From a virus: a stretch of DNA of 6,739 bases. Location: positions 1 to 6,739 of IMG/VR virus record IMGVR_UViG_3300011240_000036. The stretch is one strand, 5' to 3'. This document shows, in pieces, positions 3,323 to 3,350 of this stretch; positions within the stretch are counted from its first letter, which is position 1, and each line of letters begins with the position of its first letter. A program made the translations under genes and the position numbers. The notes below the pieces were generated by a model, which was given only the letters and a program-made list of their open reading frames with translations, had not been told where the DNA came from and did no database searches.

Positions 3323-3350
3323 ATTTCGTATAATGTATAATATGTAAATA
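3323..3350 (+). other. dif-like site with canonical 6-nt spacing: ATTTCGTATAA-TGTATA-ATATGTAAATA. It also contains tandem TATAAT hexamers, so it is a possible promoter.
   Basis: The first 15 nt (ATTTCGTATAATGTA) are identical to 1172-1186. The central TGTATA equals the E. coli dif central region. The XerD-like arm differs from TTATGTTAAAT by one substitution plus a 1-nt deletion. GTATAAT is tandemly repeated at 3328-3341. Confidence 0.5.

Follow-up and report, generated by a model that had tools for sequence, protein, structure and literature searches.

Why would a small filamentous phage that carries a folded hairpin attachment site (attP) for the Xer recombinases of its host hold a second, duplex dif-like site inside its genome? 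The question is raised by IMG/VR record IMGVR_UViG_3300011240_000036, whose 6739 nt (the whole stretch analyzed here, hereafter the window) are, to judge from the sequence, a circular Acinetobacter inovirus of about 6.66 kb with a CTX-like layout. The terminal 78 nt (6662-6739) repeat positions 1-78, which gives a circular genome of about 6661 nt, and we assign it to an Acinetobacter host because its replication protein (Rep) finds prophages in nine Acinetobacter genome contigs at 74-94% identity. Below, H denotes the hairpin, R the replication/regulation module, St the structural/assembly module, and S2 the duplex site at 3323-3350. Four scenarios could account for S2: it may be a site on which XerC and XerD still act, a seam between two modules that serves as a promoter and retains the fossil of an old Xer event, a second attP, or a fortuitous likeness to dif. 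To choose among them, we compared S2 with the host dif, with its counterparts in related phages, and with the junctions that these prophages form in the chromosome. With moderate confidence, we read S2 as a dif-derived internal duplex site for XerC and XerD that would recombine with dif and with other copies of S2. We found no description of such a site in the searchable literature, and the sole paper found on filamentous phages of A. baumannii only speculates on XerCD and dif.

Sequence and conservation of the duplex site

On the + strand, S2 reads ATTTCGTATAA-TGTATA-ATATGTAAATA, that is, a predicted XerC-binding arm (3323-3333), a central region (3334-3339), and an altered XerD-like arm (3340-3350) whose counterpart in dif is TTATGTTAAAT. 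The original prediction, made from the window alone, had used E. coli dif as the comparator. We dropped it for the Acinetobacter dif, which the published ADP1 sequence (GATTCGTATAATGTATATTATGTTAAAT; PMC2731167) and the prophage right ends, reading ATTTCGTATAA TGTATA TTATGTTAAAT, together define as nnTTCGTATAA-TGTATA-TTATGTTAAAT. S2 is identical to this dif over the XerC arm and the 6-nt centre (17 bp), and its XerC arm is the one found at Acinetobacter prophage junctions; the proposal of a near-complete dif with the same centre, a good XerC arm, and an altered XerD arm is thus borne out. The XerD arm had been described as carrying one substitution and a 1-nt deletion, a gapped alignment that the family variants contradict. 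Ungapped, the arm mismatches dif at positions 1, 7, 10, and 11 (7/11 match), and the ATATGTTAAAA variant found in relatives agrees with dif at 9/11 arm positions and at 26/28 over the whole site. S2 has the full dif-like layout, with an 11-nt XerC arm, a 6-nt centre, an 11-nt XerD arm, and the inner dyad bases.

The site lies between the stop codon of the gV-like gene (3312-3314) and the first open reading frame (ORF) of St (3378), at the boundary between the replication and structural modules, as had been noted. The 15-mer ATTTCGTATAATGTA stands on the + strand at both 1172-1186 and 3323-3337, and the suspicion that this exact pair exceeds chance proved correct: with up to 3 mismatches, it has 4 matches in the window against 0.51 expected, a number that 0 of 200 shuffles reached. 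The S2 region folds into no structure (z = -0.7), so it is not a CTX-type attP.

To determine how widespread S2 is, we scanned IMG/VR for exact occurrences of TTCGYATAATGTATAATATGT and obtained at least 119 contigs, with 105 distinct 140-nt contexts among the matches listed, to which the context counts below refer. At least 119 contigs have S2 together with the hairpin, always between R and St; the coexistence of both kinds of site in one phage, at first thought unusual, is therefore common in this group. The XerD-like arm is ATATGTAAATA in 42 contexts, ATATGTTAAAA in 41, and ATATGTCAATT in 13. Its first position is A in at least 119 contigs, while a complementary scan requiring another base there returned only two, one of which (L131) has a near-perfect dif in the place of S2. 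The distance to the first structural gene is always 35-60 nt. Next to the XerD-like arm, the window carries ATCAATAGGTTA (3352-3363, + strand), whose family consensus ATCAAYAACTTA follows XerD-arm position 1 by 11-13 nt in 105/105 contexts, although the structural modules otherwise diverge. A role for this motif as a replication origin was considered and is unlikely, given that mini elements lack it and that it accompanies unrelated Rep families. On the other side, R ends in ATCAAAGGCTTAA (3302-3314, + strand), which holds the gV stop codon. This motif lies 20-29 nt upstream of the XerC arm in 87/105 contexts; it is non-coding in M02-type modules and missing from Rep_trans-type modules, and being confined to one R-module family, it was discarded as a universal accessory site.

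Fifteen relatives retrieved independently of the site, via Rep, Zot, or whole-genome similarity (Acinetobacter phage M02), also have S2. TTCGYATAA is exact in 13 of the 15, and TGTATA and the A at XerD position 1 are each present in 14.

Xer sites were also seen in Zot relatives from a higher-GC host (L157, L158, L164, L167, L169, and L166 [6563-6606]; GC 0.50-0.58). These have the same hairpin-type sites and St/dif junctions, with a dif of the form GCTTCGCATAA TCTATA TTATGTTAAGT. In L166, a degenerate dif-like site precedes ATCAACAACTTAG, a motif found just after S2 in Acinetobacter, and the two-site design may extend beyond this genus.

A separate observation concerns the string TTCGTATAA, which has three extra exact copies in the window, at 1996-2004 (-), 2716-2724 (-), and 4116-4124 (+). 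Its total of 6 compares with 0.07 expected, an excess that is only partly explained. We rejected these copies as XerC half-sites: two lie in Rep codons (..YT[N/K]..), the 4116-4124 copy overlaps the ribosome-binding site (RBS) of a 27-aa ORF past the coat-gene terminator, and they are unconserved in relatives. They are probably coincidental.

Hairpin entry and prophage junctions

The hairpin site (1172-1269, + strand) lies between Zot and the repressor, and the 1172 copy of the 15-mer is its left arm. Its top arm consists of ATTTCGTATAA, a 12-nt spacer, and TTATGTTA; the bottom arm reads TGTTCGTATAA TGAAGA TTGATGTTAAA on the - strand, with TAACATCAA-TCTTCA-TTATACGAACA as the pairing strand. 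As in a CTX-type attP, the two inverted dif-like halves fold into a forked hairpin with an unpaired centre (-32.1 kcal/mol as DNA, z = -8.9, central 6-nt bulge). The prophage junctions agree with this assignment. On the left, the host XerC arm is joined to the hairpin interior (L003, L004, L005, L048, and other loci); on the right, the hairpin-left XerC arm is fused to TGTATA TTATGTTAAAT and host DNA (L101, L127, L132). Read in this way, both junctions are signatures of CTX-type integration, with the predicted crossover at the XerC cleavage position.

The phage of Acinetobacter sp. ANC 3781 (L004/L130; sites at 905, 3124, 7216, and 7429) has other centres. Both of its hairpin-arm centres and its S2 centre start with TA, not TG (TATGAT, TACGGA, TATAGA), which suggests that the phage has adapted to a host whose dif centre differs; its S2 has T at XerD position 1. 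A covariation between hairpin and S2 centres, striking in L004, is not general, as many phages pair TAC-type hairpins with a TGTATA S2.

We then took a census of junctions, classing every TTCGYATAA arm in 200 distinct loci by its left and right neighbours. S2 was preceded by the R end in 106 cases, plus 4 with little context, and never by the St end or by host DNA. True dif followed the R end in 10 loci and the St end in 4. Hairpins followed the St end, their native arrangement, in 64 cases and the R end in 10, and had no phage gene on their left in 24. At least 13 of the latter are true host junctions, which between them show at least 5 distinct host flanks, and every identified host-left junction, from several Acinetobacter species, is a hairpin. 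The commonest right end is thus the R end and XerC arm plus TGTATA fused to TTATGTTAAAT and host DNA (10 loci, versus 4 for St/dif). In alignment, this R/dif junction is S2 with its phage-side arm swapped for the dif arm. Hence, one half of S2 is fused to true dif in 10 loci, as expected of a crossover point, and the enzymes at work there would be the host Xer recombinases. The St-side half behaves differently: it is joined to host-left DNA or to a St-end arm in 0 of about 110 S2 sites in the census, and two dedicated scans of IMG/VR gave no host-left/S2 or St-end/S2 junction. The A. baumannii host-left flank had a sole IMG/VR match, joined to true dif.

Locus L207 shows another arrangement. 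At 382-560, an intact dif adjoins the A. baumannii host-left flank and is followed immediately by an inovirus in opposite orientation, with Zot and Rep_trans on the minus strand; about 110 nt downstream lies an inverted dif-like string. Such phages may occupy dif in another manner.

Individual loci give the order of these elements. In L003 (A. bouvetii), TagF and OmpA-family genes adjoin the hairpin, and the order is H-R-S2-St-H-R-dif-host. Its two R copies share 99.84% identity over a stretch that starts at the hairpin XerC arm and reaches into the XerD arm, where homology stops. In L005, a helicase gene adjoins the hairpin, and the entire element is H-R/dif. The host genes next to the left hairpin in both loci show that entry is hairpin-mediated. 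L005 and L007 contain mini elements with only the hairpin and the R segment (1172 to 3323), which are deletion variants bounded by these two positions, of the kind that the original prediction had suggested looking for in relatives; such H-R elements are multicopy in places (L005, L007, L080).

The types of R module in the arrays are informative as to their origin. In R-S2-St-H-R/X arrays, the R-end flank of the terminal R matches that of the R preceding S2 in 6/6 cases, whereas neighbouring R modules differ in 4/5 H-R/H-R arrays (about 0.015 by Fisher's exact test, calculated by hand). This contrast indicates that the terminal R/dif and its neighbour have one phage as their source, as opposed to an independent satellite. 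Across S2, the R-end and St-start types (42 x 28 clusters) form 63 combinations and 13 four-gamete quartets.

Some loci are composite arrays or genomes in which Phage_CRI-type and Rep_trans-type R modules are connected via R/hairpin junctions (L029 [9291 nt], L075, L019, L107, and L080). L029 repeats after 8482 nt and may be a packaged composite genome. A "cargo" flank upstream of some S2 sites, considered as host DNA, was found to be the end of a second, Rep_trans-type replication module.

Proposed recombination at S2 and competing explanations

Sequence comparison gives the identity with dif, the family-wide conservation, and the junction structures; from these we infer that XerC and XerD act on S2 today, which way and how often the reaction runs, and what the T-to-A change does to it. 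The phage would enter via the folded hairpin (1172-1269), where XerC would swap one strand with dif and replication would complete the product, host/H-R-S2-St/dif. S2 would then form a direct repeat with the regenerated dif, sharing its XerC arm and 6-bp centre. Recombination between the two (S2 x dif) could remove the St of the dif-adjacent copy and leave an RS1-like H-R/dif remnant or, in an H-R-S2-St-H-R/dif array, release a complete circular genome, S2-St-H-R. Recombination between S2 copies (S2 x S2) would let phages trade R and St modules. With A at its innermost position, the XerD arm would support XerD/FtsK-driven exchange less well and make it occasional, not an event of every cell division; the same A also makes a TATAAT that possibly serves the structural operon. 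In the TLC system, T1 and G5 of the XerD arm matter most for XerD-first recombination, and a weakened XerD arm protects TLC and the gonococcal island from FtsK-driven loss (PMC9226527). Because of this protection, and since S2 keeps G5 and has lost T1, we infer that the T-to-A change tunes the reaction down rather than abolishing it.

Three routes to the R/dif junction were weighed: S2 x dif recombination, hairpin integration of independent mini-satellites, and primary integration mediated by S2. The second predicts that the terminal R is often of another type and is disfavoured because the type was the same in 6/6 arrays. The third predicts host-left/S2 and St-end/S2 junctions and is disfavoured because neither the census nor the dedicated scans contained any. 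Rolling-circle read-out alone cannot give the R/St reassortment, since R and St stay linked across S2. The S2 x dif route covers the deletion of St or, in reverse, the insertion of the replicative form, and would explain all of these patterns, namely, the junctions, the same-type terminal R, and the R/St reassortment. The idea of Xer-mediated resolution or rearrangement, raised in the original prediction, thus fits the comparative data.

Several observations weigh against this interpretation. The site itself was the query that yielded most of the sample, and A. baumannii isolates are the source of many contigs. The reciprocal product of S2 x dif deletion (St-end arm plus TGTATA-ATATGT) was not found, but as a circle unable to replicate it would have disappeared in any case. 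With 17 bp shared between S2 and dif, the junctions are silent on the place and manner of the crossover. The R/dif junctions could in principle come from mini-phages that arose via slippage between the direct repeats at 1172 and 3323, and the T-to-A change, like the conserved downstream motif, admits another reading as part of a promoter and leader. Finally, S2 is common but dispensable for growth, given that two close St-module relatives lack it. L132 and L133 have a St module 85-96% identical to that of the window, a Rep_trans-type Rep, no S2, and no o31 gene, and their gV' stop overlaps the following start codon (L132 1-2200, L133 1-1620); L132 is integrated, with a CTX-type St/dif right junction at 6619.

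The explanation that best survives besides recombination at S2 is that of a seam with a promoter, which we consider unlikely but worth serious attention. According to this scenario, S2 undergoes no present-day Xer reaction, and its likeness to dif is the fossil of an old Xer event. The XerC arm would belong to R, as the hairpin arm of a mini RS1-like satellite; TGTATAAT and the leader would be the -10 region and 5' end of the structural operon; and the R/dif junctions would result from hairpin integration of mini-circles made by slippage between the 1172 and 3323 repeats. In favour of the seam, multicopy H-R mini elements do exist, and the R-end arm is the hairpin left arm in R/hairpin junctions. 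Yet the terminal R is of the same type as its neighbour in 6/6 arrays, while independently integrated elements usually differ, and the reassortment of R and St requires a crossover at S2.

The promoter half of this scenario, which had been put forward as the competing reading of the site, has some basis in the sequence. The tandem GTATAAT GTATAAT (3328-3341) is real and contains two TATAAT hexamers on the + strand (3329-3334 and 3336-3341), and the near-universal T-to-A change at 3340, XerD position 1, turns TATATT into a perfect second TATAAT. With S2 located 35-60 nt before the first structural gene, the conserved downstream motif would fall at the 5' end of the transcript. However, there is no acceptable -35 partner, a + strand promoter scan made no call, no -35 element is conserved across the 105 contexts listed, and for an extended -10 (TGnTATAAT) the spacing of the TG is one base short. 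The hexamers are also less constant than the dif-like layout. CATAAT replaces the first one in 22/105 contexts listed, and some relatives keep the dif-like architecture while this hexamer is weakened (TTCGCATAA); L004 has lost the second yet retains arm, centre, and arm as TATAGA TTATGTAAACA. L132 and L133 run the same structural module without S2. A -10 box alone would not need the TTCG of the XerC arm or the dif-like remainder of the XerD arm (ATGTnAA), both of which are conserved, the former also in the independently found relatives. By the yardstick of the original prediction, under which conservation of the -10 box without the XerC-arm portion would have spoken for a mere promoter, this result counts against a promoter-only reading. 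It is quite possible that S2 combines promoter and Xer functions.

A second attP, through which the duplex replicative form would integrate at dif in a TLC- or VGJ-like manner beside hairpin integration, is improbable. S2 does have a XerC arm and centre identical to those of the host and a deviant XerD arm, as the TLC attP does, and the common H-R-S2-St-H-R/dif array is formally equivalent to a replicative form integrated via S2 into H-R/dif. But the expected left junction (attL, host-left/S2) was never seen, the at least 13 host-left loci with at least 5 flanks all being hairpins, and a dedicated scan of the A. baumannii host-left flank gave only true dif. Nor was there any S2 with a St-end-type arm, as integration into St/dif would give. 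A Pfam search of the window ORFs gave no XafT-like DUF3653 protein or recombinase, and the S2 centre is fully homologous to dif, unlike that of the VGJ attP. Of the TLC-type likeness that had been proposed, the duplex site, the dif-identical centre, and the non-canonical XerD arm hold, while the DUF3653 protein and the host-left attL were not found; the associated idea of two integration modes finds no support in the junctions. Last, chance or convergence of an AT-rich promoter region is hardly credible: the region is indeed AT-rich and dif cores contain TATAAT-like strings, but the 24-nt extended site TTCGTATAATGTATAWTATGTNAA, present once (3325-3348), was never reached in 200 shuffles, a -10 box would have no use for the conserved TTCG of the XerC arm, the ATATGTTAAAA variant equals dif at 26/28 positions, and S2 is the exact point of fusion with true dif in 10 loci.

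If recombination at S2 is accepted, a broader proposal can be made, which we offer tentatively. The CTX-type inoviruses of Acinetobacter may have a built-in excision/resolution site, combining irreversible hairpin integration and a reversible duplex Xer reaction in one 6.7-kb genome, for which V. cholerae requires two or three elements (CTX together with TLC or VGJ). S2 x dif would free genome circles and leave RS1-like immune remnants, S2 x S2 would make St a cassette mobilized by Xer, comparable in a phage to the pdif modules of plasmids, and the T-to-A change, at the base next to the XerD cleavage point, would set the rate.

Known Xer systems and the rest of the genome

Xer-exploiting elements (IMEX) are sorted into three classes with one kind of attP each, all worked out in Vibrio cholerae. 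The closest counterparts of the window are CTXphi and RS1, which reside at V. cholerae dif1 and to which YpfPhi and CUS-1 are related. CTXphi has the same gene order (repressor, Rep, single-stranded-DNA-binding protein, coats, Zot) and likewise a + strand forked-hairpin attP between Zot and the repressor, with inverted dif-like halves and 12-nt and 6-7-nt spacers. Its integration also regenerates dif on the right and gives arrays with truncated RS1-like replication/regulation elements. To our knowledge, CTXphi has no internal duplex dif-like site. RS1, in addition, is an independent satellite that has a gene of its own (rstC), whereas the Acinetobacter remnant is of the same type as the phage and ends at the internal site. 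The two groups also differ in host genus and dif.

In V. cholerae, CTX prophages are excised when the duplex site of a VGJ or TLC element on their left recombines with dif1 (PMC4246890). There, excision depends on a separate VGJ or TLC site, while in the Acinetobacter phage S2 is built in. The attP of TLCphi (XerD-first, activated by XafT) resembles S2 in being a duplex with a good XerC arm, a dif-identical centre, and a non-canonical XerD arm, and in both cases the deviant site ends up to the left of a functional dif after recombination. However, the TLC XerD arm deviates at 8/11 positions and keeps T1; S2 deviates at 2-4 positions, has lost T1, and keeps G5. TLC is also a separate satellite that relies on XafT, whereas S2 lies inside a CTX-type genome in which no DUF3653 was found, and no host-left/S2 junction was found for it. 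The attP of VGJphi (XerC-first, resolved by replication, reversible) is likewise a dif-like duplex carried by a filamentous phage. For both, it is plausible that excision leaves a copy in the chromosome, and VGJ-CTX hybrids form when CTX lies between the VGJ site and dif1. Yet the VGJ attP matches dif only on the XerC side of the centre, while the S2 centre equals dif throughout, which sets S2 apart from the VGJ class, and VGJ integrates via its own duplex site, a use of which S2 shows no sign.

Outside phages, the gonococcal genetic island (GGI) is also flanked by one true dif and one dif-like site (difA/difB), and the imperfect XerD arm limits its FtsK-driven loss. This island is a 57-kb element and no phage, and its deviant site is the outer boundary, whereas S2 is internal. 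In Acinetobacter plasmids, pdif Xer sites bound modules, and their recombination makes cointegrates and exchanges modules (bioRxiv 10.1101/2024.04.09.588662; PMC5790767). The pdif sites share the host genus and recombinases with S2. They differ in having other centres, a usually well-kept XerD arm, and a variable XerC arm, and they are on plasmids, often as inverted pairs, while S2 copies the dif centre. Overall, S2 would work most like a TLC-type or GGI difB-type site and belongs to neither the TLC nor the VGJ class.

These comparisons bear on the biology of an important nosocomial genus, one of whose phage groups appears to hold two kinds of Xer site per genome, both found at dif junctions. 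Acinetobacter filamentous prophages typically have a replication module on both sides, a pattern for which no mechanism was offered (PMC11209303). An active S2 would account for this flanking and for the origin of the RS1-like remnants. It would also provide a CTX-type phage with a helper-free exit from the chromosome and with a route of R/St exchange between phages, and its single-base change in the XerD arm (T1 to A) would be a natural variant for probing the balance between stability and excision. The arrays on the A. baumannii dif keep altering its XerC arm, which is relevant to dif/pdif typing or engineering.

The remaining features of the window follow the CTX-like plan. The R module (1270-3314, mixed strands) comprises a repressor-like ORF (1463-1669, - strand), Rep (1781-3004, +; Pfam Phage_CRI and G2P_X_C), and the gV-like protein (3018-3314, +), and its proteins match phrog_5642 and phrog_19820 in PHROG. 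The St module (3378-6739, + strand) begins downstream of S2 with two small Cys-rich ORFs, followed by the coat (3803-4081), a g3-like protein (4214-5449), a DUF2523 protein (5446-5718), and Zot (from 5720, wrapping around the record end to 435), all on the + strand. A Pfam search of the window ORFs found no encoded recombinase and no match to the XafT-like DUF3653, which leaves room for an unrelated activator. The small Cys-rich ORFs past S2 were considered as Xer cofactors and set aside, as they gave no informative family match and o31 is missing from M02-type phages.

Two further elements of the window stand apart from S2. A unit of about 26 nt, TTAGCCACTGGAGAGAACAATGA, which contains a stop codon, an RBS-like GGAGA, and ATG, occurs at 666-696, 840-870, 1040-1070, and 6627-6653. 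Three small hydrophobic ORFs located between Zot and the hairpin each have a copy in front of them, and one more copy lies within the Zot gene; the arrangement resembles a duplicated cassette in which a translational-coupling signal is paired with a small membrane protein. The non-coding stretch at 1336-1461, which holds a perfect 12-bp stem (AGGCACACTA..TAGTGTGCCT), is 85-96% conserved in all Rep-related loci while its flanks diverge, and may serve the R module as replication origin or packaging signal.

Phage M02 (L001; GenBank OQ693633.1) is the sole relative of the window in the phage database. Its "complete genome" runs from the gV tail to a point about 290 nt inside host DNA, which lies past a true dif at 5927-5954. 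On this evidence, the deposit is a slice of a prophage array, R-end/S2-St-H-R/dif-host, and no unit genome.

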